A stretch of 64,000 nucleotides of DNA from an uncultured Eggerthellaceae bacterium (GTDB taxonomy: Bacteria > Actinomycetota > Coriobacteriia > Coriobacteriales > Eggerthellaceae): NCBI GenBank assembly GCA_934630905.1, contig CAKTXN010000003.1:2838-66837 (forward strand), in the 5' to 3' direction. Positions 7,576 to 57,270 of this stretch are shown piece after piece. A program made the position numbers and the translations under genes. The notes beneath the pieces were generated by a model. It was not told where the DNA came from and made no database searches. It saw nothing but the letters and a program-made list of their open reading frames with translations. Within the stretch, counting starts at the first letter, position 1, and every line of letters begins with the position of its first letter.

Positions 7576-7650
7576 TCTTTTTGGCTTCTTGACTGCGTGC
7601 AGCTTTTCCATAAAGAAAGCGCCCGCTGATTGCGTGATGCGGACAAACAG
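7576..7650. repeat. left copy of a ~75-bp imperfect direct repeat flanking the 8108 locus
   Basis: The 26-bp core CCATAAAGAAAGCGCCCGCTGATTGC at 7608-7633 is identical to 8954-8979. About 30 bp on each side are roughly 70% similar. The second arm of the hairpin is decayed in this copy. Confidence 0.85.
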
Positions 7651-7794
7651 ACGTCTTCCTTGTGGGGTGTGGCAATATTAGAATGTCTGTACGGCCCGGC
7701 TTGCGCTCGGTATCGTTGAGTTAGAAGCGCATATTGTGGATTTAAGCTCTTCGATTGGGAGCCTTTGTTTGCTCTTTTCGGGGTTTTGAAAACT

Positions 7795-8074
7795 AAAATA
7801 GGAGGAAATCAAAATTATTTTGATTTCCTCCTATTTTTAATATGCACTACTTGAGCAAAATAGGAGATTTTGATAAAAAATTGAAATTTCTCCTATTATT
7901 TCTTTCAATTATCAAATGAAATTGCTTGTTTTGACTCATTTTGCACTGCGTGTTGTCTAAATCAAGGTTAAATAATAGGAGGAAAATTAAAAAATTTCAT
8001 TTTTCTCCTATTTTATCAAAGAGGACCGTGCTATAAATAGGAGAAATATAGAAAAAATACGATTCTCTCCTATT
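7795..8074. repeat. four homologous ~40-bp imperfect palindromes (AATAGGAG-N23-CTCCTATT)
   Basis: Copies lie at 7795-7837 (perfect 20-bp stem, 3-nt loop), 7859-7897, 7974-8012 and 8036-8074. They form two pairs, each 62 bp start-to-start, with 115 bp between the pairs. The DNA is AT-rich. Confidence 0.9.
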
Positions 8075-8107
8075 TTAGATGAAAGCAAAGGAATAAGGGG
8101 GTGCGCA

Positions 8108-8914
8108 ATGTTGCTGGATGAGGTCAAATCAGAGCTGGCCGAGCTAAACGATGCAATCGAGTGGGCACAAAAGGGACTTAGCAAGGCGCCTGAGGGCTCT
8201 TTGCTCGTCGATGACTCAAAAAACGGTATTCATTATTATTGGCGCAAGACAGCTACGGATAAAAAAGGTGTTTACCTGGGCAAAGGCGACCAGGAGCAAG
8301 TTCGCGCTCTTGCACAAAAAGATTACGAGGCTCGCTTGCTTAAGGCTGCCGAAAAGGAAAAAGCCTTGCTTGAGCGAATTCAAGTACGCTGCGACAAGGG
8401 AGGCTTGCAGGGCTCAGGGGTCCTCGGGCTGACTTACGAAAACCTGTCTGATGCTCGAAAAGAGCTGGTGGAGCCTTATATTTTGTCAAACGACGAGTAT
8501 GCTCGACGCTGGCAGCTTGAAGAGTATGCAGGTAATTCACATCCGTTTGGATCGTATTCGCTATTCACGCGCGGTGGCGTGCGGGTGCGCTCGAAATCCG
8601 AAGTGCTTATCGCTGACGCTCTAGAGGCGGCGGGCGTGCCGTATAAATACGAGCGCCCTCTCAACCTGGGAGGATACAATCCCGTCTATCCTGACTTTAC
8701 GGTATTGAACAAGCGTACTCGCGCAGAATATTATTGGGAGCATTTTGGGGGCATGGATGATGCTGAGTACCGAGAGGGCATGGTGCACAAGCTAAACAGT
8801 TATGCGTTGGCTGGCATATTTCCCGGTGAGCAGCTTTTGGCTACTTACGAGACATCGGAAACGCCCTTGGATACACGCGTTATCAGGGTACTTATTGAAA
8901 AATACTTGCTTTAG
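8108..8914 (+). CDS. hypothetical protein with C-terminal PD-(D/E)xK (TnsA/Vsr-like) nuclease-fold motifs
   Basis: 268-aa ORF with AAGGGGG upstream of the ATG. The N-terminal half is coiled-coil-like. The C-terminal half reads RSKSEVLIADALEAAGVPYKYERPL ... YPDFTVL ... YYWEHFG. The fold assignment is by motif resemblance only. Confidence 0.55.
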   Translation: MLLDEVKSELAELNDAIEWAQKGLSKAPEGSLLVDDSKNGIHYYWRKTATDKKGVYLGKGDQEQVRALAQKDYEARLLKAAEKEKALLERIQVRCDKGGLQGSGVLGLTYENLSDARKELVEPYILSNDEYARRWQLEEYAGNSHPFGSYSLFTRGGVRVRSKSEVLIADALEAAGVPYKYERPLNLGGYNPVYPDFTVLNKRTRAEYYWEHFGGMDDAEYREGMVHKLNSYALAGIFPGEQLLATYETSETPLDTRVIRVLIEKYLL

Positions 8915-8922
8915 TAAAAGCT

Positions 8923-8996
8923 TCTTTTTGACTTCTTGGCCGCAATCGGCATTCCATAAAGAAAGCGCCCGCTGATTGCATGGGAGCAGACAAGCG
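8923..8996. repeat. right copy of the ~75-bp direct repeat flanking the 8108 locus
   Basis: See 7576-7650. This copy keeps the intact terminator hairpin. Confidence 0.85.
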
Positions 8997-9005
8997 GGCG
9001 CTTTT
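8962..9005. terminator. bidirectional rho-independent terminator between the 8108 ORF (+) and cytX (-)
   Basis: Stem AAAGCGCCCGCT ... AGCGGGCGCTTTT, with an A-run before and a T-run after. Confidence 0.7.
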
Positions 9006-9027
9006 GTGCTTGGTGGCGGAAGTTCGG

Positions 9028-10230
9028 CTATTTGTTGGCAGCAGCTTTGCGCGCAATGAATCCAACTGCGCAGGTTGCAGCAAACACGATAATCATAACG
9101 GGGAATGTGCTTCCCAGTGGTGTATCGATAACCATGAACTGGCGATATAAAATGAAGCCGCAAACCCAAATAATCAGATTTGGCCAGTTGAAGCTTGTGG
9201 CCATATCATCGCGCTTCAACACGAAGTAGTTCGCAATGATGACAGCGATCATGGGGGCAAACACGCTGCCGATCAGGTACAAGAAGTCCGTGATGTCAGC
9301 AAGGGGCAGGGTGATGGCGCCAATGGTGCCCAGGGCCGTTACGATAAGCGCCACAATCTTCCCAGGGACTTTTTTGCCGAACGGCGTGCCGATGGACTCC
9401 GATGAAACGCCGGCGCTGTTTGCGTCCAAGAACGTTGTGGTTACCGTTGAGAAGATGATGATGATAAGGCCCGCAGCGCCCATGCCCGTTTTCAGCATGA
9501 TCTGCGCGATGTCGGACTCGCCTGTGAAGATTGCCATTGACATGCCAATGGCGTACATCCAGCAGCTGACCAGTCCGTATACAATCGAGCTTGCAGCGGT
9601 GGCGGCAACGGGCTTTGCTGCGGTGCGCGTGTAATCGCTTACCAGCGGCAGCCATGAAAGGGGCATGGCAACGGCAAGTTCAACAGCCGCGCCAAACGTC
9701 AGACCGTCGTTTTCCACGCCCAGCGGCACCGCGCCGCTAAACGCGCTCACGCACAGCACTAGCGTAAGAATGAACAGCGCAAGCACGGCAACAATGTTGA
9801 TTTTCTCCAGATTGCGAATGCCAATCAGAATCCATGCAGCAATCAACACGCCAATAACTAGGCACCATATCCATGCGCCGCAATCGAAAAGCGTGCTGGC
9901 GGAAAGCGCGCCGTCATAAATCATGATGCCGGTCCAGCCTACCAGCTGCAAAACGTTAAGCGTGGCGAACAGCACGGCGCCCTTTTGGCCAAAGCTCATG
10001 GCCGCTGTTTCCATGGAGCTACGCTGCGTCTTTGCGCCGATAAGCCCCGCAAGGAAAAGCAGCAGGCAGCCGATGATGTGGCCCACAACAATTGCAGCCA
10101 AGCCGATGGAAAAGCCCAGGCTGGCGAAGTAGGTGCCGGTCAGAATTTCGGCAAGCGAAACGCCCGCGCCGAACCATATCAGGCTGTTTTCGAGCACAGT
10201 TGTCCCGCGCGTTTCAGATGAAGTAGTCAT
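9028..10230 (-). CDS. cytX: cytosine/purine permease-family transporter, putative hydroxymethylpyrimidine transporter
   Basis: 400-aa protein with about 12 TM segments and AAGGGGA upstream of the ATG. It lies 40 bp downstream of thiD in the same operon. The substrate is inferred from that context. Confidence 0.7.
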   Translation of the reverse strand: MTTSSETRGTTVLENSLIWFGAGVSLAEILTGTYFASLGFSIGLAAIVVGHIIGCLLLFLAGLIGAKTQRSSMETAAMSFGQKGAVLFATLNVLQLVGWTGIMIYDGALSASTLFDCGAWIWCLVIGVLIAAWILIGIRNLEKINIVAVLALFILTLVLCVSAFSGAVPLGVENDGLTFGAAVELAVAMPLSWLPLVSDYTRTAAKPVAATAASSIVYGLVSCWMYAIGMSMAIFTGESDIAQIMLKTGMGAAGLIIIIFSTVTTTFLDANSAGVSSESIGTPFGKKVPGKIVALIVTALGTIGAITLPLADITDFLYLIGSVFAPMIAVIIANYFVLKRDDMATSFNWPNLIIWVCGFILYRQFMVIDTPLGSTFPVMIIVFAATCAVGFIARKAAANK

Positions 10231-10270
10231 AGGTTCCCCTTATTTATTTGTTGTTTTGCTCGTTCGCGGC

Positions 10271-11095
10271 TTACGCGAAATAGCTCGCAGAATTATTCGA
10301 TAACGTGAAAGCGTGGTTCATGGGACCGCTTCCTGCACCCAGGTCCAGCATGGCGCCCAGCGCGCCGCTGATGTATTCCTTTGCGCGGAAAACTGCCTGT
10401 TCAAGCGAGTATCCCTTAGCAAGATTGCTGGCAATTGCGCTGGAAAGCGTGCAGCCCGTTCCGTGAGTGTTTGGGTTGTCGATGCGTTTCCCCTCGAACC
10501 AGCGACCCGCGCCCGCGCCGTTGTTGGCGGCGGGGTCAAACAGGTAGTCGTTCGCGTCGTTTAGGTTGTGTCCGCCTTTGCAGAGCACGGCGCATCCGTA
10601 TTGTTGCGCAATGGCGCGCGCGGCGGCCTCCATGTCGGCCTCGCTTTTCACGGATGCGCCCGTGAGCTCTTCGGTCTCAGGGATGTTGGGGGTTATCACG
10701 CACGCCAGGGGAAGTAGTCGTGCTTTAAGCGTTTCAATGGCATCGTCGCAGATGAGCTTCGCGCCGCTTGTGGCCACCATCACGGGATCAACCACAATGT
10801 TGCGCGCCTGATAGTGCTCCAGGCTGTTGGCAATCGTCTCGATCAGCGCACTGGTACTCACCATGCCAATCTTCACGGCATCGGGGAAGATGTCGGTGAA
10901 AACAGCGTCGATTTGCTGCTGAAGAAATTCAGGGGTTACGTCCAAAATGCCTGTTACGCCGGTGGTGTTCTGCGCGGTCAGCGCGGTAATTGCGCTGGTT
11001 GCGAACACGCCATTCATGGTCATCGTTTTGATATCGGCCTGAATTCCGGCGCCTCCGCTGGAGTCTGATCCAGCGATTGTCAATGCGGTTTTCAT
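10271..11095 (-). CDS. thiD: hydroxymethylpyrimidine/phosphomethylpyrimidine kinase
   Basis: The start was trimmed to MKTALTIAGSDSSGGAGIQADIKT, which has GGAAGGAG upstream. GTGCTLSSAIA is present. Confidence 0.9.
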   Translation of the reverse strand: MKTALTIAGSDSSGGAGIQADIKTMTMNGVFATSAITALTAQNTTGVTGILDVTPEFLQQQIDAVFTDIFPDAVKIGMVSTSALIETIANSLEHYQARNIVVDPVMVATSGAKLICDDAIETLKARLLPLACVITPNIPETEELTGASVKSEADMEAAARAIAQQYGCAVLCKGGHNLNDANDYLFDPAANNGAGAGRWFEGKRIDNPNTHGTGCTLSSAIASNLAKGYSLEQAVFRAKEYISGALGAMLDLGAGSGPMNHAFTLSNNSASYFA

Positions 11096-11359
11096 GGTTC
11101 TCCTTCCGGTTTCGCATTGTTTCGTAACGCGTCGCGAAGCGGTGCCCTCGACTCGACGCGGAGTTGATATTCGGTTGCTGCTGGGGCCGTCGGGCAAAAG
11201 CGTGCGGCGAAGGCCCCAGCGGGGTCGGTGCTGTTGTCGTTGCTGGTCGCGTTGGCTGCGGCGGTTGCTGCTGGGCTGGGGCCGTTCGGTCTGCCGCTAC
11301 TGCCAGCGTGAGCGTGCCGACCGTTGGCAGCCGTCCGCCAATAGCGGGGCCGACGGCGA

Positions 11360-12145
11360 TTACGCCGTTGCGCCCACGAGCTGCGAAGTGGCTTCTGCCA
11401 GGTGCGCTGCTGCTGCGGCGATGTCCTTGTGGGCGAAAATGGCGCTGATGACCGCCACGCCCACAATGCCAGAACTCTCAAGCTCGGAAACGTTTTCGCA
11501 GGTAATGCCACCAATAGCAACAACGGGAATGTTCACGGCGTTGCAAATGGCGGTAAGTGTCTCGTGGCTTACTTCGGCGGCATCGTCCTTCGAGCTGGTA
11601 GGGAAGACCGCGCCCACACCCAGGTAATCGGCTCCATCGCGCTCGGCGCGCAACGCCTGTTCCACGGTTTGCGCTGAAACGCCCAAGATCTTGCCGGGGC
11701 CAATGAGTGCGCGTGCTTCTTGCGCGGACATGTCGTCTTGCCCAATGTGGATGCCGTCGGCGTTCATTGCAAGCGCAACGTCCACGGCATCGTTTACCAC
11801 GAACGGCACACCTGCCGTGCGGCAAATTTCCTGTAGCGCGGTTGCTTCGGCAATCATGTCTGTGTGCTCCAAGTGCTTTTCGCGCATCTGGACAAACGTG
11901 GTGCCGCCATCAAGCGCGGCGCGCACCTGATGGCACAGCGCCGCTTGCTTTTCGGCTTCGGTGGCATCTTCGGCAAGATCCAGCCAGTTGCGGTCCGTTA
12001 CCGCGTAAACACGCAGGTCATAAGCAAGTTTTTGCAGGTCAACAGCACTTGCTACGCTAGACGCGCTGTCTGAGCAGCGGCTTGCGCCCGCTTCGCATCC
12101 GCCTGCAACGTTCGCGCTGCCGCCCGAGCGGCAGTACGGTTCCAT
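11360..12145 (-). CDS. thiE: thiamine-phosphate synthase
   Basis: The start was trimmed to the ATG at 12145. Motifs seen: LRVYAVTD, FVQMREK, and GVGAVFPTSSK. Confidence 0.85.
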   Translation of the reverse strand: MEPYCRSGGSANVAGGCEAGASRCSDSASSVASAVDLQKLAYDLRVYAVTDRNWLDLAEDATEAEKQAALCHQVRAALDGGTTFVQMREKHLEHTDMIAEATALQEICRTAGVPFVVNDAVDVALAMNADGIHIGQDDMSAQEARALIGPGKILGVSAQTVEQALRAERDGADYLGVGAVFPTSSKDDAAEVSHETLTAICNAVNIPVVAIGGITCENVSELESSGIVGVAVISAIFAHKDIAAAAAHLAEATSQLVGATA

Positions 12146-12194
12146 GGCGCTTGCTCCTTCTGCAATGCTTGCCGCGCCTAAGCTGCTCGCTTCG

Positions 12195-13016: not shown

Positions 13017-13019
13017 GAT

Positions 13020-13205
13020 TTCTCCCTCCGTTGGCATTATCCAAATCAGGTTTTCGCGGTCGAAGGTCAGCGCGGCTGCAGCGCACAGGCGGCGGTGGCG
13101 CGGCGCAGCATCGATGGCGACACAAGCGCGGCGGTGTTCCTCCGCATGGTGCGGAAGGCGGCGCATCCTTCCTCTCAGCCCGGTTTACGAGCTCCCATTT
13201 CGGCG
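13020..13205 (-). promoter_or_regulatory. TPP (THI-box) riboswitch controlling thiM-thiE-thiD-cytX
   Basis: The minus-strand RNA contains AACCUGAUUUGGAUAAUGCCAACGGAGGGAG (13022-13051). This is a near-exact match to the pyrophosphate-sensor helix of E. coli thiM and overlaps the SD. The GGGAGCUCG-UAAAC-CGGGCUGAGAGG element (CUGAGA at 13173-13178) lies ~120 nt upstream. I could not align the 5' half unambiguously by hand. Confidence 0.65.
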
Positions 13206-13580
13206 CTTATTGTTGCGCTTTGGGTCGAGTTTCGCAAGGGTGAGCGCGAAGAAAACCATTAACGGCGCAGAAAGATTGCGCGAAGAAGTAGGGGAGAGGG
13301 TGGGAAGAAGGAGAGGATGGGAAAAGGTCGGCGGCGGTGGCAATGGCGCCGACGGCGCTAAAGGCGCGGTGCGGTGTCACGGCGCCTAAGGAAATTCCGT
13401 TTGAGGACATAATGATTCCAGAGAACGGTCCGACTGTGCCTGCTTGGTCTCTCCTCGCTCGTTCGCGAATGGACTGCTTCGCGGCATTTTGCGGTGCTGA
13501 CCCGTTGTTTGCAACGTTCGAAAGGCGCATTCCGCCGCTTTCCCCTTGTTGGCTCCGCATGTTGTTGGATTTTGGTGCCT

Positions 13581-14810: not shown

Positions 14811-14864
14811 GGTTTTGGTGTATGCGCTGTTCAGAAGGTTGTTTTGTTCGCGTGCGGCTGAAAC

Positions 14865-17382: not shown

Positions 17383-17385
17383 GTC

Positions 17386-19280: not shown

Positions 19281-19408
19281 ATTGCACCGTTACAGTGCAA
19301 TTTAAGCGAAAAAATGCACCATCACAGTGCAATATACTTTGAAAATTGCACCGCCACGATGCAATTTCTGGTAAAATTTGCACTATCACAGTGCAAATAT
19401 ACTTCTCA
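19281..19408 (+). repeat. 4 x 32-bp tandem units, each containing TTGCAC-N7-GTGCAA
   Basis: TGCAC occurs at 19283, 19315, 19347 and 19379. GTGCAA or ATGCAA occurs at 19295, 19327, 19359 and 19391. The period is exactly 32 bp. The array ends 25 nt before the ATG of the downstream ATPase. Confidence 0.9.
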
Positions 19409-19432: not shown

Positions 19433-20599
19433 ATGGAATCGCTTTATGAGTACATGCAGAACCAGCTTAACAACACCGATTTTTCTTTTAAGCGGTATCA
19501 ATACAATCGAATCAATTGGGATAATCGCATGTTGGCCCTGGTTGGCCCACGCGGCGTGGGCAAAACCACGCTCTTCCTACAGCGGATTCGTGATGCCCAT
19601 GCCAATGGTGGGGCATTGTATGTGAGCGCCGATCATTTGTATTTTGCAACGCATACGTTGCTTGAGGTGGCGGACGCGTTTTACAAGCGCGGTGGCGCCT
19701 ATTTCTTCATCGACGAGGTTCATAAGTACCCCGGATGGTCTCGCGAACTCAAAAACATCTATGATGCTTATCCTGACCTGCATGTTTACTTTACCGGTTC
19801 CTCTGTTCTTGATATCGAGAAGGGCGAAGCGGATCTTTCTCGTCGTGCTCCGCGATACCACATGCAGGGGCTTTCGTTTCGCGAGTTCCTTAAAATCCGT
19901 CACGGAATTGACGCGCCGGTGTTCTCGCTCGAACAGATTCTTGACAACAAGGCGGCAATCCCTGGCTTAAAGCATCCTCTTCCTTTGTTTGAAGAGTATC
20001 TTCGCTGCGGATATTATCCTTTTGGGGAAGATGCTGATTTCGATATGGAGCTTCGTCAGGTTATAACGCGAACGCTGGAACAGGATATTCCTGCGTATGC
20101 CCAGATGAACGTGGCAACGGGACGCAAGTTACTGAAACTGATGGTTGTTGTGAGCGAGCTGGTTCCCTTCAAGCCAAACATGAGCAACTTGGCCAAGATG
20201 ATTCAGGTTGGACGTAACAACGTGGAAGAGTATCTTGTCTACATGGAGAAAGCGGGAATGATTTCCCTGCTCAGAACGGGCGCGAGCGGGCTGGGTGCGT
20301 TAGGAAAGGCGGAAAAGGTCTACCTGGATAATCCGAATATCCTTTTCAATTTAAGCAACGAATGCAGCGTTGGTACCGTGCGGGAAACCTTCTTCTTCAA
20401 CCAGATGAGAGTAAATCACCTGGTCACAGCATCGGGGGCTTCGGATTTTATGATAGATGGACGTACATTCGAAATAGGGGGACCTGGTAAGGGGCAATCT
20501 CAAATCAAGGATGTTGACGACGGTTACGTGGTGAAGGACGGAATCGAATACGGTTTCGGGAATGTGATCCCGCTTTGGGCGTTTGGCCTTAATTATTGA
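19433..20599 (+). CDS. AAA+ ATPase (AAA_14/DUF4143, COG1373-type) with C-terminal PD-(D/E)xK-like motifs, paralog A
   Basis: 388-aa ORF with AAAAGGAG upstream. Walker A is LVGPRGVGKTTL and Walker B is FFIDEVHKYPGW. The C-terminus reads RETFFFNQM...SDFMIDGRTFEIGG. It is visibly AT-richer than its flanks. Confidence 0.8.
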   Translation: MESLYEYMQNQLNNTDFSFKRYQYNRINWDNRMLALVGPRGVGKTTLFLQRIRDAHANGGALYVSADHLYFATHTLLEVADAFYKRGGAYFFIDEVHKYPGWSRELKNIYDAYPDLHVYFTGSSVLDIEKGEADLSRRAPRYHMQGLSFREFLKIRHGIDAPVFSLEQILDNKAAIPGLKHPLPLFEEYLRCGYYPFGEDADFDMELRQVITRTLEQDIPAYAQMNVATGRKLLKLMVVVSELVPFKPNMSNLAKMIQVGRNNVEEYLVYMEKAGMISLLRTGASGLGALGKAEKVYLDNPNILFNLSNECSVGTVRETFFFNQMRVNHLVTASGASDFMIDGRTFEIGGPGKGQSQIKDVDDGYVVKDGIEYGFGNVIPLWAFGLNY

Positions 20600-26832: not shown

Positions 26833-26937
26833 GATGTTGACAAATTACCCCACCTTTTGTCAACAATTGCCCGCTAAATCCACGGGACGAACGAAGCTGT
26901 TTGTACGCTTGAGGCTGGAGGCGAATTGTTACGCGCG
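26833..26937. repeat. left copy of a ~105-bp direct repeat flanking ATPase B (contains a REP-like palindrome)
   Basis: The 59-bp stretch 26841-26899 is identical to 28557-28615. The flanks are similar as far as TTACGCGCG. The copy contains TTGACAAATTACCCCACCTTTTGTCAACAA (26837-26866). Confidence 0.9.
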
Positions 26938-27050
26938 ATCAAGCTATCGCCACAATGCCCGAGAAGAGCCGCCGTTCTCGTTGCTGTGCTTTGCAGAAAG
27001 CGCTGCTCCTATCATCGCGTTTAATTGCGGTTCTGGCTTCAAAATGATAT

Positions 27051-27168
27051 CTATTCCAAATTTATGTAACATGTTAAGTTTTTTCGGAATAGATTGACTT
27101 TGTTTCATCGCCCTTGTATCGTCTTTCTATTCCAGATTTATGTAACATGTTAAGTTTTTTCGGAATAG
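27051..27168 (+). repeat. two copies of a 42-bp palindromic unit CTATTCC-N28-GGAATAG with inner TAACATGTTA
   Basis: Copies at 27051-27092 and 27127-27168 match at 41 of 42 positions and start 76 bp apart. The second ends 10 nt before the ATPase B start codon. Confidence 0.9.
27094..27122 (+). promoter_or_regulatory. candidate sigma70-type promoter between the two palindromes
   Basis: TTGACT (27094-27099), a 17-nt spacer, then TATCGT (27117-27122). Confidence 0.4.
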
Positions 27169-27178
27169 AGGAACGAGC

Positions 27179-28435
27179 ATGCAGTCGAAAAGGGAAGAGT
27201 ATCTTGCAAAACTTGCGAAGAAGCGTTTGAGTCCGTACATTAAAGTTATTACAGGTATTCGTCGTTGCGGAAAAAGCTATCTGCTTAAGACGCTCTATCG
27301 CGACTATCTTCGTTCTGCTGGTGTTGATAATCGGCAGATTGTTTCCGTAGAGCTTGATGATGACAGGTTTGAAGAGCTGCGCGATAAGAACGCCCTTCGA
27401 AGCTATATCGAGAATAAATGTTCCGATGACAGTCTGCAGTACTATGTATTCATAGATGAAGTGCAGATGGCTGCGGGGTTTGAGGGCGCGATTATCTCGC
27501 TCAATAATCATCCTAACTACGATATGTACATTACCGGCAGTAACTCCGAGTTCCTGTCCAGGGATATATCTTCAAAGTTTCGGGATCGTGGAGACGAAAT
27601 CAGAATACATCCGCTCTCGTATAAAGAATTCTACGACGTATACCAAGGTGATAAGCGCTTCGCTTTGACGGATTACTTGACCTTTGGCGGTATGCCTCGC
27701 CTTATAAATGAGTCGGACGCTGTGGAGAAGATGGCCTATTTGGTCAACCTGGTTGAAAACACCTACCTGGCAGACGTGGTTGAACGCAATCACGTCCGCT
27801 TGCCCGAGGAAATGGGGGCACTTTTTGACGTTCTGTGTTCTACAACGGGCTCGCTGGTGAATCCCAGCAGCCTGGCGGGGACATTGCTTTCGGAAAAACA
27901 CGTCAAGATAGATGGGAAGACTGTCTTTTCCTATATGGAGCACTTTGAGAGAGCATATCTATTAGAGATAGTTAAAAGATTCAACATCAAAGGCAAAAGT
28001 TATTTGAAAAGCAGCTTCAAGTGCTATCCAGAAGATGTTGGACTCCGGAATGCTCGACTCAACTTTCGCCAGCTTGATCAAGGGTTTGGTATTGAGACGG
28101 TTGTTTATAACGAGCTTCGTCGCAGGGGGTATCGTGTTGATGTTGGCATGATTGAAACAAGGGAGCGCGACAAGGAGGGTAAGCAGGTTTACAAGCAGAA
28201 TGAGGTTGATTTTGTCGCTCGGCTTGCCAGCAAGGAATATTACATCCAAGTCATGGATAAATCTCCTTTGGGTCAACATGGTGCAAACGAGTACGGCAAT
28301 CTCTTGAAGGTTCCAGGGTCCTTCAAGAAGATTGCTGTAGTAAACGAGCCGTTTCGGGCATACACCAACAGCGACGGCATACTTGTGGTTTCTCTGGAGG
28401 AGCTCTTGCTTGAACGCGATTCTCTTGATTGGTGA
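27179..28435 (+). CDS. AAA+ ATPase (AAA_14/DUF4143 type) with C-terminal PD-(D/E)xK-like motifs, paralog B
   Basis: 418-aa ORF with GAGGAA upstream. Walker A is ITGIRRCGKSYLL and Walker B is VFIDEVQ. The C-terminus reads VVYNELRRRGYRVDVG...EVDFVARLASKEYYIQV. It is AT-richer than its flanks. Confidence 0.8.
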   Translation: MQSKREEYLAKLAKKRLSPYIKVITGIRRCGKSYLLKTLYRDYLRSAGVDNRQIVSVELDDDRFEELRDKNALRSYIENKCSDDSLQYYVFIDEVQMAAGFEGAIISLNNHPNYDMYITGSNSEFLSRDISSKFRDRGDEIRIHPLSYKEFYDVYQGDKRFALTDYLTFGGMPRLINESDAVEKMAYLVNLVENTYLADVVERNHVRLPEEMGALFDVLCSTTGSLVNPSSLAGTLLSEKHVKIDGKTVFSYMEHFERAYLLEIVKRFNIKGKSYLKSSFKCYPEDVGLRNARLNFRQLDQGFGIETVVYNELRRRGYRVDVGMIETRERDKEGKQVYKQNEVDFVARLASKEYYIQVMDKSPLGQHGANEYGNLLKVPGSFKKIAVVNEPFRAYTNSDGILVVSLEELLLERDSLDW

Positions 28436-28536
28436 TTTTCTCATCGCTTGGTGCTTTCGACAGGAGGTCGTGCGGTCGTTGTTTCTCAGGGCTGAAAATG
28501 GCAATGGAGGATACGGCTGGCGTTGTACGGGAGCGT

Positions 28537-28649
28537 CGATGTTGTCAAATTGTTGTCAAATTACCCCACCTTTTGTCAACAATTGCCCGCTAAATCCACG
28601 GGACGAACGAAGCTGCGTGCTTGAGGCTAGAGGCGAGTTGTTACGCGCG
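28537..28649. repeat. right copy of the ~105-bp direct repeat flanking ATPase B
   Basis: See 26833-26937. It has an extra internal duplication (TTGTCAAATTGTTGTCAAATT). It overlaps the last 3 codons (stop included) of the 28641 gene. Confidence 0.9.
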
Positions 28650-31974: not shown

Positions 31975-33294
31975 CTATCTTTGCGTAAGAAGAAATGCCA
32001 GGTAATGCGGCAGTGTTAGTATTTCTCCTGTACGGCCGATATTCAGGTCGGCAAGCTTTATGGCTGATTCCACGTGATATTTCTCGGGATGCTTGAGGAT
32101 GGTTTTTATGCTTTTTGCATTACCATCGTTGGCTTTTACTTCAACTGGCACACACTTTCCTTTGTAGCGAATCACAAAGTCAAGCTCAAGACCAGAATCC
32201 TTTCTGAAGTAATAAAGCTTCCTGCCCATTTTTGAGAAGATGTCTGCGATAAGGTTCTCGTAGATGCCGCCTTTATAACTAAAAAGATTGCCGTTAAGAA
32301 TATCGAACTGGGTTCCATCTTCAAGCATGCTCACGAACAGACCAGTGTCCGCCATGTATATCTTGAACTGGTCGTCTATTGCGTTGCCGTCCAAGGGAAG
32401 CTCAGTAATGGACAGATTGTTGCATCGGGTGATTATGCCCGCATCCTCAATCCATTGAAGGCTGCCTGCGAAGCGAGCGGCGGTTGACCCTTTTTTTGCC
32501 AGCGAATACTGGAATTTCTTGTTTTCTTTGGCCAACTGCCTTGGGATTGACTGGAAGCATTGTTTGATGAGCGACTTGTCTGCTGCTGGGGCGTATTTCA
32601 CCATGTCGTCTTCGTAGGCACGTACGATATCGCGCTGAATGCGCAACACGCTTGCCATATCGCGATTGTCCACGAATGACTGAACGGCGTCGGGCATGCC
32701 GCCTACCACGGTATATTCCAGTAGCAGCGAGCGCATACGGGAATGCAAAGCCGGCGGAACCGGCGTTTCGGCTTCGAGATGGGAACGAAGCATCTCAATC
32801 ATTGAATCGGATATATCGTTTGCCCAGCAAAACTCTTCAAAGTCCAGCGGATGCATGCTTATAAGTGTTTCATAGCCCACGGGAACAGAGGCTGGCTCTT
32901 TACCGTAGCCAGCCACTCCAAGGAGCGATCCCGTGCCAATGACATCATAGCGTCCATCAAGGCTGAAGAACTTAAGAGCCGTGCGCGCTTGCGGGCATTC
33001 TTGTATTTCATCAAGAATCAGGACCGTTTCCCCTGGCACGAAGCGCGTTGAGGCACCAAGATACGCAGAGGCCATCATGGTGATTTGGTCTACGTCCAGC
33101 GACCCTGCGAAGATATCTTTTGCACCTGGGTTTTCAAAGAAATTGATGTAAACAACATTACGGTAATTTTCCTGAGCGAAGTGCAATGCAGCAAACGTCT
33201 TTCCGCATTGCCTGCACCCCTTGATAATTACTGGCTTGTGGTTGGGTTCGACTTTCCATGCCAAGAGTTGATCTATGATTTTTCTCTTTAACAT
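31975..33294 (-). CDS. AAA+ ATPase (AAA_14/DUF4143 type) with C-terminal PD-(D/E)xK motifs, paralog C
   Basis: 439-aa ORF. Walker A is IKGCRQCGKTF and Walker B is LILDEIQECPQA. The C-terminus reads IYENLIADIF...LELDFVIRYKGKCVPVEVKA. It is AT-richer than its flanks. Confidence 0.8.
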   Translation of the reverse strand: MLKRKIIDQLLAWKVEPNHKPVIIKGCRQCGKTFAALHFAQENYRNVVYINFFENPGAKDIFAGSLDVDQITMMASAYLGASTRFVPGETVLILDEIQECPQARTALKFFSLDGRYDVIGTGSLLGVAGYGKEPASVPVGYETLISMHPLDFEEFCWANDISDSMIEMLRSHLEAETPVPPALHSRMRSLLLEYTVVGGMPDAVQSFVDNRDMASVLRIQRDIVRAYEDDMVKYAPAADKSLIKQCFQSIPRQLAKENKKFQYSLAKKGSTAARFAGSLQWIEDAGIITRCNNLSITELPLDGNAIDDQFKIYMADTGLFVSMLEDGTQFDILNGNLFSYKGGIYENLIADIFSKMGRKLYYFRKDSGLELDFVIRYKGKCVPVEVKANDGNAKSIKTILKHPEKYHVESAIKLADLNIGRTGEILTLPHYLAFLLTQR

Positions 33295-33320: not shown

Positions 33321-33448
33321 AAACTTTTTCAAGCGACTTTTTCGTAAATTATAAACTTTTTCAAGCGACTTTTTTGGAAATCTGCAACTTTTACAAGGGA
33401 CTTTTTCGCGTTTCAGCAATTTTTCCAAGGGACTTTCGGGTGCACTTC
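33321..33448 (-). repeat. 4 x 32-bp tandem units directly upstream of ATPase C
   Basis: Plus-strand units start at 33321, 33353, 33385 and 33417: AAACTTTTTCAAGCGACTTTTT twice, then CAACTTTTACAAGGGACTTTTT and CAATTTTTCCAAGGGACTTTC. The period is exactly 32 bp. Each unit has an ACTTTTTC sub-repeat 11 bp apart. Confidence 0.9.
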
Positions 33449-33577
33449 TTCCTGAGTTCGATCCGCTGTGTCTCTCGGACTCTTCTCCTGCGGCGATTTT
33501 GTTCGTTTCCGATTTGCCTTGAACGAACATTTTATAAACCGAAAGTAACAGAATTTAAACGCGATAAAGAAACAAAC

Positions 33578-33606
33578 TTGACAGTACATGACTAAGATTT
33601 TATATT
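33578..33606 (+). promoter_or_regulatory. candidate dnaK operon promoter
   Basis: TTGACA (33578-33583), a 17-nt spacer, then TATATT (33601-33606), 67 nt upstream of the dnaK ATG. Confidence 0.55.
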
Positions 33607-33672
33607 GACGCTAACAAAAAAAGAACTGTGCCTTTACGGTACAGAAAATCATCAGTGAAAGGACTGATAACA

Positions 33673-40694: not shown

Positions 40695-40697
40695 ATG

Positions 40698-51876: not shown

Positions 51877-51893
51877 GAAAGGAAACCTTCTTC

Positions 51894-53210
51894 ATGCAGT
51901 GGAAATGCGGTTCCTATTCCTTCGACACCAAGATGCCCATTATTATGGGCATCTTAAACCTTACGCCCGATTCTTTCTCGGACGGTGGCTTGTATAACGA
52001 GACGCAAGTGGCGCTTGCCCATGCGCGCGAAATGATTGAGCAAGGCGCTCACATGGTTGACGTGGGCGGCGAGTCTACGCGTCCGGGTTCTGCCCCCGTG
52101 ACCGAAGAAGAAGAGCTCGCGCGTGTTATTGATGTAGTGCGTACGTTGTCTGAACAGGGAATTTGCGTGAGCATTGATACGCGTCATGCATCGGTTGCGC
52201 AGGCGTGCGTTGAAGCGGGCGCAAGCATTATCAACGATATTTCGGGTTTTCGCGACCCTGCGATGATCCAGGTTGCCGCAAACTGCGATGCAGGTTTGGT
52301 CGTCATGCACATGAAGGGCGACGAGCCGGCGACTATGCAGCAATGTGCGGTGTACGATGATGTTGTTGCGGAAGTGCGCGATTACCTGCGCGATCAGGCG
52401 CGCATGCTTGAAGAAGCGGGCGTTGATCACGATCGCATTTGCATTGATCCGGGTCCTGGCTTTGGCAAGACCGCCCAGCAAACGCTTGACCTGGTGCGTA
52501 ACTTCCAGGAGTTCGTCCACTTGGGATACCCTGTGATGGCGGCCGTTTCGCGTAAGAGCTACATTGGCGCGAAATATCAGATCGAAGAAGCGTCTCAGCG
52601 TGATATTGCCAGTGCTGCCGAAGCGCTTTTGGCCTGCGAGCAGGGCGCGCATGTCTTCCGCGTTCATAACGTGGGTGTTCATGTGGAGGCGCTGAAGGAT
52701 TTGCGTCCGTATGCGCTGATTGCGCTGGGCTGCAACGTGGCGCTTGTTGCCGAACCTGGTGAAGAGCGTGAAGCAAAGATTGCCCAGCTCAACATGGCGA
52801 TTGGTGATTTGTGCGCGCTTCCCGATACCCAGATTATCGATGTCTCCAGCTTCTACGAGAGCGAGCCGGCGTATTACGAGGACCAGGATGTTTTCGTGAA
52901 CGCCGTGGTGTTGCTGCGTACGGGCATTCCGCCCAAGGAACTGCTGGATTATCTGCACGTTATTGAGAACAAGCTGGGGCGCGTGCGTACGATTGCGAAT
53001 GGCCCACGTACGTGTGACCTGGATATTCTTGATTATCAGATGTATGTGTGCGATACCGATATCCTGACGCTGCCGCATCCGCGCATTGCTGAGCGTGATT
53101 TCGTGGTGAAGCCGCTTTTGGAGATTTTGCCCGGCCATATCCTGGCCGACGGCTCTGCGGTGGATACCGTGTCCGAAGAGCAGCGCATTGGTCGTTCGTT
53201 CAAGCTGTAA
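51894..53210 (+). CDS. folP: bifunctional dihydropteroate synthase / HPPK (FolP-FolK fusion)
   Basis: The N-terminal half carries GILNLTPDSFSDGG. The C-terminal half carries GPRTCDLDIL and LTLPHPRIAERDFV. Confidence 0.9.
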   Translation: MQWKCGSYSFDTKMPIIMGILNLTPDSFSDGGLYNETQVALAHAREMIEQGAHMVDVGGESTRPGSAPVTEEEELARVIDVVRTLSEQGICVSIDTRHASVAQACVEAGASIINDISGFRDPAMIQVAANCDAGLVVMHMKGDEPATMQQCAVYDDVVAEVRDYLRDQARMLEEAGVDHDRICIDPGPGFGKTAQQTLDLVRNFQEFVHLGYPVMAAVSRKSYIGAKYQIEEASQRDIASAAEALLACEQGAHVFRVHNVGVHVEALKDLRPYALIALGCNVALVAEPGEEREAKIAQLNMAIGDLCALPDTQIIDVSSFYESEPAYYEDQDVFVNAVVLLRTGIPPKELLDYLHVIENKLGRVRTIANGPRTCDLDILDYQMYVCDTDILTLPHPRIAERDFVVKPLLEILPGHILADGSAVDTVSEEQRIGRSFKL

Positions 53211-53252
53211 GCGCTCGGGATTTCGTGGAGGGTTAAAGGTAGAAGGCGCAGC

Positions 53253-54035
53253 ATGGAATTCTATCGTGAGATAAGCTCGACGAACGATGTGGTGAAAGCT
53301 GCTCTGAAGCAAGGTTGTGAACAGGGATTTTGTGCTGCATCGCTGAAACAGACGGCAGGATACGGTCGTCAGGGGCGCTCGTGGTCAAGCCCTTTGGGTG
53401 GCTTATACTTCTCGGTGGCGCTTCGTCCGCAGGCGGATTTGGAGAAAATTCCCACGCTTGCGCTTCTGGCAGCGTTGGCTATTCGTCAGGGTATTGTCCG
53501 GCTGGATTTAGTGCGCAAGGGTGACGATCTGCTTATCAAGTGGCCCAACGACGTGGTTTTAGCGCAGCCTGATGGGACGTTTCGCAAGGTGTGCGGCATT
53601 TCGTGCGAATACTGCGAAGGCGGCGTGTGCGTGGGAATGGGCATTAACGTTTTGCGCCAAGCTGCTGTTCAAACGGATGGGCGCTATCTTCCTGGTTACC
53701 TGAGCGATGTTGCGGGGGCGCGCTTTCCCGAGCTTGCGGGCTTCGATGAAACAGGTGCGTTGAAAGAGTCGGGCGCGCAGCTAATAGCTCAAACCATTGT
53801 TGATATTTTAGTTGGTTTTATGCCGCAGTGGCAAGCGGAAGGTTTCGCGCCGTTCGCGGATAAATATAACAGCTGCTCCTATCTTTTCCGAAAGCGCGTT
53901 GCCGTGGCGAATATTATGGGCGACGTGCAAACGGAAGGTGTCGTTTGTGGCATAGATGCTTTGGGGCGACTTCTTGTGGAAACGCGCCAAGGCGAAATAG
54001 TACCGGTAATTGCGGGGGAGGCCCATCTTGTCTGA
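53253..54035 (+). CDS. birA: biotin--[acetyl-CoA-carboxylase] ligase (no N-terminal HTH)
   Basis: GRQGRSWSSPLGGLYFS and KWPNDV are present. Confidence 0.85.
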   Translation: MEFYREISSTNDVVKAALKQGCEQGFCAASLKQTAGYGRQGRSWSSPLGGLYFSVALRPQADLEKIPTLALLAALAIRQGIVRLDLVRKGDDLLIKWPNDVVLAQPDGTFRKVCGISCEYCEGGVCVGMGINVLRQAAVQTDGRYLPGYLSDVAGARFPELAGFDETGALKESGAQLIAQTIVDILVGFMPQWQAEGFAPFADKYNSCSYLFRKRVAVANIMGDVQTEGVVCGIDALGRLLVETRQGEIVPVIAGEAHLV

Positions 54036-54612
54036 GAAAGTCAAAAACACATCGCGCGCTCAAAGCATTGTGCGTATTGCATTAACCATTGCCATTATGG
54101 CGGTTTCTGCGTGGATCTCCATTCCTATTGGCCCGGTGCCGTTCACGCTGCAGTGCTTTGCGGTGGCATTTGCGATTTGTGTTCTTCCCGCAAAGGAATG
54201 CTTGGCTTCCGTTGGCGGGTATTTGGTTTTGGGCGCATTCGGCGTTCCTGTTTTTTCGAGCATGCGCGGTGGCATTTCCATTCTTGCAGGCGTGACAGGT
54301 GGCTTTTTGTGGGGCTACTTCATTGGCGCGCTTGCGGGTCTGGCTATTTTGGCGGCCTTCAAGAAAATGGGGAAGGATCGCACGTTTGTTGCGTGCCTGT
54401 GCGCGTGCGTTGCGTACCTACTGTGTACGTACTTCTGCGGAACCGTTCAGTTCATGGGCGTTGCGGGTGCTTCCGTTCAGGCGGCGCTGGCGGCGTGCGT
54501 GATTCCGTTTGTTGCGGTTGATGTTGCGAAGTTGGTTGCGGCCTCTTTAGTGGCGCGCGCCGTTGATCGCGCGGTGGGCATCAATCGCATTCAAGGCGTG
54601 CCGCAGAAATAA
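54010..54612 (+). CDS. bioY: biotin transporter BioY
   Basis: Protein with about 6 TM segments that overlaps the birA 3' end. VPFTLQ resembles the BioY P(I/F)TLQ motif. The start is uncertain; a TTG at 54028 is also possible. Confidence 0.8.
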   Translation: MRGRPILSEKVKNTSRAQSIVRIALTIAIMAVSAWISIPIGPVPFTLQCFAVAFAICVLPAKECLASVGGYLVLGAFGVPVFSSMRGGISILAGVTGGFLWGYFIGALAGLAILAAFKKMGKDRTFVACLCACVAYLLCTYFCGTVQFMGVAGASVQAALAACVIPFVAVDVAKLVAASLVARAVDRAVGINRIQGVPQK

Positions 54613-54634
54613 CCAGCGGACGATAGATGATGTT

Positions 54635-54672
54635 AAGGAGCCAGGCTCTGGTGGAGCTTGGCTCCTTTTTTG
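54635..54672 (+). terminator. rho-independent terminator of bioY
   Basis: Stem AAGGAGCCAGGCTC ... GAGCTTGGCTCCTT followed by a T-run. Confidence 0.75.
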
Positions 54673-54742
54673 TTTCTAGGCTCGTGAGCCTGCCCGGCGC
54701 GCGCAGCGCATCGGTCAATAAACCACCCGCTATGTGGGTGCG

Positions 54743-56032
54743 CTATCTTGGCAGGCTCTTCTCGTCGAGCAGGAAATCGAGAACGGACATGGTTAGGATT
54801 CCGCTGTCGTCATAGGTCGGCTTCACCACATCACGCACAAGCACGATCTTGCTGAAGCTATCGGGCACCTCGCGAAGCGGGGCCTTCTCTTGGCGTTCCT
54901 TCTCCTCGTCCGGCAGGTGCAGCGCCGACTGTATGTAGTAGCGCCGTGAGCCCAGGTTCGCCACGAAGTCCACCTCGAGCTGCTTGCGCACGACCCTGCC
55001 GTCGATGCGCGCAGCCTTCTCGACGGAGCCGACATCGACCGAAAAGCCCCTTGAGCGCAGCTCGTTGTACACGATGTTCTCCATGATGTGGGTCTGCTCG
55101 ACCTGTCTGAAGCCAAGCCTGGCGTTACGCAGACCGACGTCCTCGAAGTAGTACTTCTTGGGGCTGCCGATGTACGTGCGCCCCTTGACGTCGTACCGGC
55201 GGGCCTCTTCGATGAGGAAGGACTCCTCAAGATAGCCGATGTAGGTCGAGATGGTGCTCGCGGTGATCTTCGAGCCCAGAACGCTTTTGAAGGTCGCCTC
55301 GATCTTGGGAGGGTTGGTGAGCGAGCCGATGGATGAGGCTAAAACGTCCACCAGGTCCTCGAGCTCCTGGGTCTTTGCCACCTTGTTTCTGGCCACCACG
55401 TCTTTCAGGTAGGTCTCGGAGAACAACCGTTCCAGATAGCGGGACTTCTGCTCATCGGTGCGCATGCCCAAAAGAAGCGGCATGCCGCCGAAGACGACGT
55501 ACTCGGCCCATCCCTGGTACCTATCCCCCTCGAATCCCTGCATGAACTCGGAGAAGGAGAGCGGGCGTACGCGGACCTCGTCGCCCCTTCCGCGAAACTG
55601 CGTCATGACATCGGTGGACAGCAGCTTGGAGTTGCTGCCAGTCACGTAGACGTCGACGTTTCGCATGCGCAGCAGGCCGTTGAGCACGCCGTAAAGGCGT
55701 GGCGGCTCGTCTTTACGCAGCTCCCCATCGGAGATCGCGTACTGCACCTCGTCGAGCATGACGTAGTACTGCGAGGTCTTATCGGCGATCTTTGCGCGCA
55801 GATAGGCGTCAAGCGCGCCTGGGTCCCGCAGGCCCCTGTTCGCCTCCTCGTCCAGCGAGACCTCGATGATATGGTCGTCGTCGATGCCGAGCTCGCCTCT
55901 GAGGTAGCCGCCGAAAAGTTCGAACAGCAAGTACGTCTTGCCGCAGCGTCTGATTCCCGTGATTACCTTGATCATCCCGTTGTGCATCCTGTCTACCAGG
56001 CTGTCAAGGTATCTGTCCCTGCGCACTTCCAT
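54743..56032 (-). CDS. AAA+ ATPase (AAA_14/DUF4143 type) with C-terminal PD-(D/E)xK-like motifs, paralog D
   Basis: 429-aa ORF with AAGGAGA upstream. Walker A is ITGIRRCGKTYLL and Walker B is VMLDEVQ. The C-terminus reads IVYNELRSRGFSVDVG...EVDFVANLGSRRYYIQS. It is the closest paralog of B. Confidence 0.8.
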   Translation of the reverse strand: MEVRRDRYLDSLVDRMHNGMIKVITGIRRCGKTYLLFELFGGYLRGELGIDDDHIIEVSLDEEANRGLRDPGALDAYLRAKIADKTSQYYVMLDEVQYAISDGELRKDEPPRLYGVLNGLLRMRNVDVYVTGSNSKLLSTDVMTQFRGRGDEVRVRPLSFSEFMQGFEGDRYQGWAEYVVFGGMPLLLGMRTDEQKSRYLERLFSETYLKDVVARNKVAKTQELEDLVDVLASSIGSLTNPPKIEATFKSVLGSKITASTISTYIGYLEESFLIEEARRYDVKGRTYIGSPKKYYFEDVGLRNARLGFRQVEQTHIMENIVYNELRSRGFSVDVGSVEKAARIDGRVVRKQLEVDFVANLGSRRYYIQSALHLPDEEKERQEKAPLREVPDSFSKIVLVRDVVKPTYDDSGILTMSVLDFLLDEKSLPR

Positions 56033-56061
56033 GTCCGTCTCCTTCTTAGTTTCATTTAGTG

Positions 56062-56090
56062 ATTATGTCACATGTTGCATTTTCGCTCAA
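56062..56090 (-). promoter_or_regulatory. candidate promoter of ATPase D
   Basis: Read on the minus strand: TTGAGC (56090-56085), a 17-nt spacer, then CATAAT (56067-56062). The -35 and spacer are identical to 57249-57270. Confidence 0.5.
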
Positions 56091-56139
56091 TGAAAATCTT
56101 AGAGCAGCGTGGGTAGGAAAGCGTCTTCGTCGCGGTAGA

Positions 56140-57039
56140 TCACTCTGGATCGTATGAGATTCGGAAGTAGTCGAGCATCGCCTTGAACCGATCCTGCGCG
56201 GCCAGGCAGGTATCCGTAAGGAACCCTTGCTCGTAATCCCATTCCGAGAGCCCCCGGTAGTAGAAGGCCTTCATGTCGTCGGCGATGACGAACGGCACCA
56301 CGCGGCTGGCGAGGCATTCTTTGAACATGACGAGCCTGCCCACACGGCCGTTGCCGTCTTGGAAGGGGTGAATGCGCTCGAAGGCCACATGGAAACCCAG
56401 GATGCTGGCGAAGGAGTGCTTTTTTCGGGGATCGTACTCCTTCAAAAGGGCGCTTACCTCCCGGTCGACGTCTTCGGGCTGCGTTGTCTTACGGCCTGCC
56501 ACCTCGTTGGGTAGGCGCTTGTAGTCGCCGACGGCGAACCAGTCCTTGGCCGAGTCGGTCGTGCCCGCCTTCAAGATGCGGTGCAGCTCCTTTACCATCC
56601 CCTCAGACAGGGGTTGTTGCGCATGGTCGATGACGTAGTCGACGGCGCGGAAGTGGTTCTGGGTCTCCAGGATGTCGTCTATCCGGACGGGCCCGTTGCC
56701 GGCGCCGATCGTAGCCGTCTCGAAGATGAGCCTGGTCTGGTCAAGCGACAGCCTGCTTCCCTCGATGCGGTTGGAGTTGTAGGCGAGCTCGACCTGGATC
56801 TTGTGGTATATGCCGCCCTTGGTCCTGGACGCTTTCTCTTCCCGAAGGCGCGAGAGCAGGGGGCTGTCCGCTTGTCTCTTCGCGTTCGAGCGGGCGGGCT
56901 TTTCCGCGTCCGCGGGTATGTTCCAGGTCTTCCCCGTGAGAAAAGCGCCGGGCACGCGGCCTTGGGCGCAATAGTTTCGCACGCTCCTCTCGGAAACGCC
57001 CCAGATTTCAGCTATCTCGGCTGCGGAAAGAAACCCCAT
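56140..57039 (-). CDS. HTH-Fic protein (AMPylase family) with an intramolecular inhibitory motif
   Basis: The Fic motif is HPFQDGNGRVGR. SNRIEG fits the inhibitory [ST]xxxE[GN] motif. The N-terminal HTH reads LSAAEIAEIWGVSERSVRNYCAQGRV. The start was trimmed to MGFLS (57039). The track ORF starts at 57066. Confidence 0.85.
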   Translation of the reverse strand: MGFLSAAEIAEIWGVSERSVRNYCAQGRVPGAFLTGKTWNIPADAEKPARSNAKRQADSPLLSRLREEKASRTKGGIYHKIQVELAYNSNRIEGSRLSLDQTRLIFETATIGAGNGPVRIDDILETQNHFRAVDYVIDHAQQPLSEGMVKELHRILKAGTTDSAKDWFAVGDYKRLPNEVAGRKTTQPEDVDREVSALLKEYDPRKKHSFASILGFHVAFERIHPFQDGNGRVGRLVMFKECLASRVVPFVIADDMKAFYYRGLSEWDYEQGFLTDTCLAAQDRFKAMLDYFRISYDPE

Positions 57040-57241
57040 AGGGTTGTACCCCCCCCTTATCGGCAAAAAACATCGTGGGTTTATTATAGCAAATAGCGTT
57101 ATTTATTGCCGTTATCGGCAAAATTCTTTATTTCTACCTGTTCAGTCGGTATTCGCGGGAAAATGCTTCCAAGTCGCGTTCCCTTCCGCACATCCCTTGT
57201 GCAGCCAAAGGCGACCTACGAACAGGGGCTCGCGATTTTTG

Positions 57242-57270
57242 TAATATCCACATGTTGCATTTTCGCTCAA
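57242..57270 (-). promoter_or_regulatory. candidate promoter of the Fic gene (duplicate of the ATPase D module)
   Basis: Read on the minus strand: TTGAGC (57270-57265), a 17-nt spacer, then ATATTA (57247-57242). Confidence 0.4.

Follow-up and report, generated by a model that had tools for sequence, protein, structure and literature searches.

Private repeats around the promoters of solo AAA_14/DUF4143 genes in an uncultured Eggerthellaceae bacterium: candidate operators of single-gene cassettes

The window analyzed here, 64 kb of DNA from an uncultured Eggerthellaceae gut bacterium in whose positions all coordinates are given, carries four AAA_14 ATPase genes (A, B, C, and D), and comparison of these genes with their homologues points to a layout that appears to hold across much of the AAA_14/DUF4143 family and seems not to have been described before. 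In the B/D subfamily this layout takes the form of a private palindrome in two copies 73-77 bp apart, placed around the best match to a -35/-10 promoter. We propose that each locus would be a compact, horizontally acquired single-gene cassette of the form operator, promoter, operator, open reading frame (ORF), or, in some subfamilies, one in which an operator array phased at ~32 bp overlaps the promoter, and we consider it rather likely that the gene is under negative autoregulation by its own product, acting through its winged helix. An earlier, sequence-only reading of the same DNA had described the loci as cassettes whose product recognizes the repeats in front of it; taken whole, the observation behind that reading is partly confirmed as real, and its interpretation is partly supported.

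Predicted operators and promoters upstream of the AAA_14 genes

All four genes had been called AAA+ ATPase paralogs from their motifs, and all four clear the Pfam AAA_14 (PF13173) gathering threshold of 27 bits: gene A (19433-20599, + strand) with 99.7, gene B (27179-28435, +) with 105.9, gene C (31975-33294, -) with 79.7, and gene D (54743-56032, -) with 97.9 bits. The additional DUF4143 label (PF13635, threshold 28.1 bits) holds for B (59.1), C (105.7), and D (60.0) and fails for A, whose short and divergent C-terminal domain reaches 21.9 bits in a partial match to profile positions 1-117 of 160. B and D are each other's closest paralogs (44% identity), as had been noted, and their repeats have a core in common, ACATGT (AACATGT in the earlier reading). 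When the whole window was searched, each repeat motif was confined to its own upstream region; the repeat scores of A, B, and C lie 16-35 standard deviations over dinucleotide shuffles, and the GC content of the arrays, 0.26-0.37 vs. 0.544 for the window, bears out an earlier visual estimate that they are AT-rich. No array matched an Rfam family. The sole Rfam match in the window is a tRNA gene at 6004-6076.

At gene B, two 44-bp palindromes that are 98% identical to each other make up a putative distal operator (27050-27093, +) and a putative proximal operator (27126-27169, +), the latter ending 9 nt before the ATG, and the only sigma-70-like site, a predicted promoter of the form TTGACT-17-TATCGT (27094-27122, +), exactly fills the 32-bp gap between them. 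In a phylogenetic footprint of 14 related loci, exactly the distal operator, the -35, the -10, the proximal operator, and the ribosome-binding site (RBS) are conserved, and across homologue loci the proximal copy typically ends 7-30 nt ahead of the ATG. The best sigma-70-like match of the whole 260-nt region falls between the copies in 17 of 23 two-copy loci, where chance would give ~21% (calculated binomial p ~1e-7). We considered a CRISPR mini-array, as a 44-bp repeat with a 32-bp spacer would give a 76-bp period, and rejected it because the "spacer" is the conserved promoter, there are two copies only, and no cas genes lie near.

The survey of homologues drew on 24 loci from GTDB genomes, 80 from metagenomes, and several more obtained through exact-protein look-ups, which clustered at 80% identity into 66 non-redundant upstream regions; 61 other upstream regions from the same loci served as controls, and significance was set as a direct repeat at z >= 4. 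Direct repeats were found upstream of 33 of the 66 homologues and in 7 of the 61 controls (odds ratio 7.7, Fisher p = 2.9e-6), in agreement with the earlier suggestion that such repeats might be general among DUF4143 genes; as two of the strongest control hits are a CRISPR array and a ToxI/ToxN locus, the true background lies below 7 of 61. A repeat or a single palindrome was detected in 42 of the 66 homologues. The repeat offset was 73-77 bp in 20 of the 37 significant cases, all of them homologues at least 42% identical to B, with two more at 147-148 bp, and more distant relatives, together with A and C of the window, showed offsets of 32-34 or 39-40 bp or multiples of these. A finished Phocaeicola plasmid has the identical layout around a Bacteroidetes-type promoter, so the pattern is not an assembly artefact.

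The remaining arrays vary this theme. Array A (19281-19404, +) lies where it had been claimed, as did the palindromes of B, and comprises 4 x 32 bp (2 x 64 bp) with palindromes TTGCAC-N7-GTGCAA at 19282, 19314, 19346, and 19378 and TATACT -10-like hexamers after units 2 and 4. Array C (33322-33437, -) was likewise found as 4 x 32 bp with the core AAAAGTCsCTTGrAAAAGTT, a description that gives way to a better one as alternating GAAAAAGT half-sites. It is kept across 11 lineages with 3 to 4 units, as is a TATAAT in the third of the four units, and the adjoining ~90-nt spacer is hypervariable. In the intergenic region between C and dnaK (33440-33640), the dnaK-proximal half is near-invariant in 11 lineages and includes a HAIR-like CTTAGTC...GTCAAG. 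At gene D, the one adjoining module is 28 nt long, holds GAAAATGCAACATGTG (56069-56096, -), and is overlapped by a predicted promoter, TTGAGC-17-CATAAT (56062-56096, -). D had been described as preceded by a module present twice, and both copies are real; the second (57249-57276, -) lies 1,180 bp away, beyond a gene for a helix-turn-helix (HTH)-Fic protein, so that D has no phased array.

Some contigs (L005 and L064, and L031/L001 for B) hold a single hybrid operator, with the inter-copy promoter missing. This may be a true OFF deletion, produced when the repeats recombine, or a collapse of the repeat in assembly.

Protein architecture and the proposed autoregulation

The four AAA_14/DUF4143 proteins have one domain order, namely an Orc1/STAND-like NTPase, a helical lid, a winged helix, and a PD-(D/E)xK domain. 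In the AlphaFold2 model of B (predicted local distance difference test, pLDDT, 88.8; predicted template-modeling score 0.88), these correspond to an AAA+ domain at residues 1-155, the lid at 159-204, the winged helix at 209-284, and an alpha-beta-beta-beta-alpha nuclease-type domain at 301-418. No solved structure is related to B by sequence; the best Foldseek matches are SSO1545 (an archaeal ATPase), MalT, DNA-bound Orc1/Cdc6, NLR, Apaf-1, and CED-4, with a probability of 1.00 for the Orc1/Cdc6 structures 2qby, 2v1u, and 1w5t. Within the B subfamily, the recognition helix and the turn preceding it are the most variable segment (1.9-2.2 bits vs. 1.44 overall), and the basic wing is conserved. 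Nuclease-like C-terminal motifs had been ascribed to all four proteins, of which C alone has the canonical D...ExK (ELDFV...EVK). In the B/D subfamily, E306 and D344 are present and the motif site, which lacks both the acidic residue and the Lys, carries an invariant Q357 (YIQ[SV]); A reads SDFM...FEIG. The PD-(D/E)xK-type fold of B is confidently predicted by the model, and catalysis is a candidate property only.

Of the three roles that the sequence-only reading had offered for the arrays (autorepression, origin-like loading, or a self mark), autorepression fits best because the repeats bracket or overlap the promoter. As we envisage it, the winged helix would read the private, usually palindromic sites around its own promoter, and self-association mediated by the ATPase would bridge sites ~75 bp or ~32 bp apart, spacings that place them on the same helix face. 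Binding of the repeats by the gene's own product would then repress transcription, and this negative autoregulation would keep the level of a candidate anti-phage effector, one that is potentially toxic, low and buffered. The effector in question is PDC-S01 of PADLOC, whose profiles are matched by C (PDLC04786, 1e-152), by B and D (PDLC04787, 1e-105), and weakly by A (PDLC04789, 1e-23). These matches, with those to PDC-S04 and a PDC-S68-like profile at two other genes of the window, agree with an earlier suggestion of a possible defense role, and the gene may act in defense. In the literature PDC-S01 (AAA_14/DUF4143) is reported as the fourth most common prokaryotic defense-type locus and as the single locus met most often in rumen genomes; its hits in complete genomes number ~40,000. 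It figures in published work as a very abundant, unvalidated defense candidate, and DUF4143 as a PD-(D/E)xK domain of unknown function. A search of a literature collection with few subscription journals returned no account of upstream operators, DNA recognition, or autoregulation for the family.

If the protein reads its own repeats, the two would be expected to diverge together, and comparison among homologues shows that the putative operator sequences change along with the protein. The operator core GTAACATGTTAA is kept in a B homologue of 87% identity, reads CTGTCCATGTCCAG in one of 72% identity, and GCAACATGTG in D, and a C-like gene of 56% identity retains AAAAGTCGG with a phasing of ~33 nt. 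For 28 of 29 loci, the proximal copy most similar to the distal one is that of the same locus, though the test is partly circular, since the loci had been chosen beforehand for a significant repeat. Among 27 proteins compared, the more alike two proteins are, the more alike are their operators (Mantel r = 0.32, p ~0.001), and by segment the correlation is highest for the winged helix (0.32), followed by the ATPase (0.27) and the lid (0.07); with a modest r, and a value for the ATPase nearly as high, the relationship may reflect co-inheritance and not co-adaptation.

Beyond these two limits on the co-variation, several observations weigh against autoregulation by the gene product. The position of the promoter is poorly defined at A, C, and the 8108 gene described below, and D lacks a second operator copy nearby. 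In roughly one third of the homologues, the one on R. albus pRUMAL01 among them, neither a repeat nor a palindrome could be detected. Transcripts would include the proximal palindromes, which might act as RNA hairpins. Furthermore, the winged helix of STAND/NB-ARC proteins is often structural and does not bind DNA.

Part of the same evidence could be read in another way, in that the arrays might be loading, sequestration, or self-mark sites on which the ATPase nucleates to assemble or park the nuclease, any effect on transcription being incidental. The Orc1/Cdc6-like fold favors this, as such initiators bind inverted repeats beside their own gene, and so do arrays of up to 4-6 sites, which exceed the need of simple repression, and an extra operator copy found 3' of the stop codon in three loci (L077, L084, and L025). 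The conserved feature is nevertheless the position of the sites relative to the -35/-10 and the RBS, and two sites, the number in the commonest form, are what one would expect of operators more than of a storage platform. We regard this reading, which is compatible with autoregulation, as unlikely, if still the most credible of the rivals considered here.

A variant that combines both functions seems slightly less likely still. The winged helix would repress at its own promoter, and incoming DNA that chanced to hold such sites would be cut by the ATPase-nuclease assembled on it, amounting to a methylase-free, self-limiting, restriction-like defense in which the sites at its own promoter would be the sole chromosomal cognates. 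If this were true, the rapid co-diversification of recognition helix and operator would be the mark of a specificity arms race.

Cassette boundaries, distribution, and other readings of the repeats

Presence and absence of the cassettes was followed in 10 contigs from sister lineages, obtained by a look-up of the neighboring ferredoxin and 92-95% identical in nucleotide sequence. In the window, cassette B (26938-28550, +) lies between direct repeats of ~103 nt, the left copy (26835-26937) spanning the region of the PAP2 promoter together with the final 9 nt of the adjoining 178/232-aa gene, and the right copy at 28551-28649. The insert is absent from seven of the ten sister contigs, which hold one copy of the ~100-nt flanking sequence; of the other three, one has B with both flanking copies and two have B with just ~17 nt duplicated on the right. 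Cassette C is present in all ten, its array kept with 3 or 4 units. Empty sites carrying a single repeat copy, which the sequence-only reading had predicted, were seen for B; C and 8108 are syntenic in sister lineages, so that not every locus is mobile at present. The reading's remark that two loci lie within direct repeats of local sequence proved right (31 nt at 8108, ~103 nt at B). Look-ups of the PAP2 and holin-like proteins returned matches from the same lineage only, and a contig of a Hadza metagenome-assembled genome is 99% identical to the window over gene B. An 11-nt tandem duplication, TGTTGTCAAAT (28540-28562), lies exactly at the junction of cassette B with its right flanking repeat.

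Between unrelated contexts, proteins of up to 97% identity are found whose loci share homology from about -86 through the stop codon only, and B and its 87%-identical relative are alike only from the distal operator through to the stop codon. The conserved unit is the putative operator-promoter-operator-ORF, which moves between genomes, and the loci can in this sense be called self-contained cassettes, as had been proposed. B homologues at 68% identity (P0051, P0055, and P0115) carry annotations to Erysipelotrichaceae and to the archaeon Methanocorpusculum, which indicates recent transfer between domains of life. Within the window the genes sit singly among housekeeping neighbors (PAP2, NikR, HypE, ferredoxin, DnaK, Fe-ADH, ApbE, YqeY, permease, BirA, and BioY), with a GC content of 46-51% for A, B, C, and 8108 and 60% for D and the Fic gene; no methyltransferase, antitoxin, or separate regulator gene was found near the cassettes.

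As homology between loci begins at or in the distal repeat and stops at the stop codon, the repeats might themselves be cis sites for mobility or recombination, or host-factor sites, that mark the cassette end and are acted on by the cassette's own nuclease or by a recombinase in trans. A left boundary that is ragged around the distal operator, the clean empty sites for B, and the ~10 of 88 loci flanked by duplicated local sequence (17-214 nt) are in line with this. However, the repeats are at one end only, the ends of B are imprecise, with unrelated flanks of 112 nt and 115 nt outside the conserved unit, the length of the duplications is highly variable, and no recombinase or integrase gene occurs in the cassette neighborhoods. 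In addition, C and 8108 are syntenic and retain their arrays, so that purifying selection on the arrays of immobile loci is already seen. We therefore think it improbable that the repeats serve mobility, somewhat more so than either of the two readings weighed above. It is a possibility that a nuclease cutting its own operator would give rise to ragged left ends and variable 17-214-nt duplications, and the cassette would then promote its own movement.

The imprecise ends of the moving unit argue against a dedicated transposase, and a precise transposon was rejected on the unrelated flank in B and the spread of duplication lengths. An integron gene cassette was set aside since the palindromes are upstream, with their own promoter, nothing is conserved past the stop, and there is no integrase in the neighborhood, and a phage-borne gene since just 4 homologues were found among 2.9 M viral contigs.

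Tandem 32-bp units directly upstream of a nuclease-type gene also recall ToxI/ToxN, and a real ToxIN locus with 36-nt repeats is among the controls; the repeats could accordingly be structured RNA, either a type III toxin-antitoxin-like antitoxin processed from the tandem array or hairpins that control translation in the 5' untranslated region, and the proximal palindromes, lying between the -10 and the RBS, would be in the transcribed part. Against this, the distal copy of the B/D subfamily is upstream of the -35 and should escape transcription, the conserved TATAAT of C is in the third of the four units of its array, no terminator was found between array and gene, no array matched Rfam, and the proteins are of the DNA-type AAA+/winged-helix/PD-(D/E)xK class and not ToxN-like RNases, so that this reading is very unlikely. 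A replication role, raised earlier as origin-like loading, would make iterons or origin-recognition boxes of the arrays, and initiators for integrated elements of the ATPases. It has an initiator-like fold and AT-rich, phased repeats beside the gene in its favor and can practically be discarded, given four modules within 50 kb of a housekeeping chromosome, a cumulative GC skew that climbs steadily with no turn, cassettes of ~1.5 kb with no other replication genes, repeats that flank a promoter, and C homologues on 59 of 72,556 plasmids, each plasmid being at least 36 kb among the 25 matches listed.

Some surroundings of AAA_14 genes in other genomes were recorded in the survey. A ToxN gene with 36-nt ToxI-type repeats lies beside one such gene (L123, ~4400-5148), and a CRISPR array with a 47-nt repeat and a 76-nt period beside another (L109, 5160-5460), which indicates defense-island contexts. 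In L128-L131 (e.g., L128, 3001-5579), two different AAA_14/DUF4143 genes stand tail to tail and have a palindrome each, that of the second being TTTCGCAAA-N17-TTTGCGAAA, and NERD, NTP_transf_8, and DUF6788 genes are alongside. The contigs that hold homologues are in many cases just 1.3-3 kb long, a size that suggests breaks in assembly at these cassettes.

Unrelated genes with the same design and comparison with known systems

Two unrelated genes of the window, the nuclease gene 8108 and the HTH-Fic gene, would follow the same design with DNA-binding parts of their own. Gene 8108 (8108-8914, +) encodes 268 aa with an N-terminal coiled-coil and small beta domain and a C-terminal PD-(D/E)xK domain. 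Its array (7797-8077, +), found as had been claimed, consists of four 42-nt palindromes AATAGGAG-N24-CTCCTATT at 7797, 7859, 7974, and 8036, spaced 62, 115, and 62 nt apart. Searches against Pfam and NCBIfam placed the protein in no family; over its last 115 residues it matches the PADLOC PDC-S68 terminal domain and the HEAT_CxxC_PD-DEXK profile, and in the model (pLDDT 90) a long N-terminal coiled-coil part precedes a C-terminal domain resembling restriction endonucleases. It had been taken for a TnsA/Vsr-like protein, an assignment that finds no support here, as the best Foldseek matches are Bax1, MunI, and DrdV, all at E > 0.01, and the fold is a generic restriction-endonuclease-like one. 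The flanking 31-nt direct repeats are specific to the window lineage, the left copy (7606-7636), which equals half of the permease terminator, being missing at this position in the sister lineage L134 and the right copy (8952-8982) lying within that terminator. In relatives with 92% and 72% identical proteins the gene is at the same YqeY/permease site with the array half-sites conserved, private inverted-repeat arrays were found in 4 of 4 independent lineages of the family, which numbers more than 1,300 members, and viral matches to the family cover the nuclease domain only. Between the 8108 orthologue and the permease of a related species (L142, 5029-5317) there are ~8 GC-rich tandem repeats of 36-37 nt, of which the window has none.

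The HTH-Fic gene (56140-57039, -; PADLOC PDC-S04) has its true start at the ATG at 57039 and is the sixth solo gene in the window with an operator-promoter-operator design. Its putative operator pair TTTTGCCGATAA (57054-57123, -), with copies 55 nt apart, brackets an extended -10, TGCTATAAT; one operator is the palindrome TTGCCGATAACGGCAA at 57106-57121 and the other a half copy at 57054-57068. The gene lies between the two 28-nt D modules, which exactly bracket the Fic unit, and this duplication may reflect co-regulation of Fic and D or a flanking duplication made when the Fic unit inserted into the D promoter. Exact-protein look-ups for D and Fic returned no record elsewhere.

The recurrence of the design in an unnamed nuclease family and an HTH-Fic gene points to a rule that is general among toxic single-gene cassettes: because the effector would carry its own repressor function, the gene would be safe wherever it lands. 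For the AAA_14/DUF4143 family itself, the private operator pair provides a predicted sequence-specific DNA ligand for each member, a predicted role for the winged helix, and a direct experimental entry. It would also explain a practical trouble, in that these cassettes break metagenome assemblies, and cloning them is probably difficult when the control region is left off.

Among known systems, B, C, and D (and A weakly) match PDC-S01 as single-gene, widely transferred fusions of an ATPase with PD-(D/E)xK (COG1373), whereas the window genes stand solo between housekeeping operons and not in defense islands. With archaeal Orc1/Cdc6 they share AAA+ plus winged helix and inverted repeats just upstream of the own gene, and they differ in the added PD-(D/E)xK domain, in several copies per 50 kb with no skew switch, and in sites that bracket the promoter; judged by analogy, the resemblance would concern a possible way of working and not membership. 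The nucleotide-binding, helical, and winged-helix core is also that of STAND proteins (MalT, Avs/NLR-like); in this group, the promoter sites bound by MalT are repeated boxes, and nuclease effectors form part of Avs proteins. The window proteins are, however, ~420 aa long, with no C-terminal sensor repeats and no separate HTH, and a STAND NTPase proper was rejected because the core-like fold is followed, after the winged helix, by just a nuclease-type domain of ~120 aa and no sensor or repeat domain.

ToxIN resembles these loci in that short repeats stand in tandem just before the gene for a toxic enzyme, and the window loci differ from it in promoter position, the absent terminator, palindromic DNA-type sites, and protein class, with no ToxN domain. 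Finally, in C-protein restriction-modification circuits, autoregulated toxin-antitoxin systems, and BrxR/CapW-type regulators, palindromic operator pairs and feedback limit a mobile, potentially toxic nuclease gene. C-protein-controlled restriction-modification was rejected for the window loci, as there is no separate C gene or methyltransferase and the neighbors are housekeeping genes. Unlike in all of these circuits, the DNA-binding function would here be fused to the effector itself.

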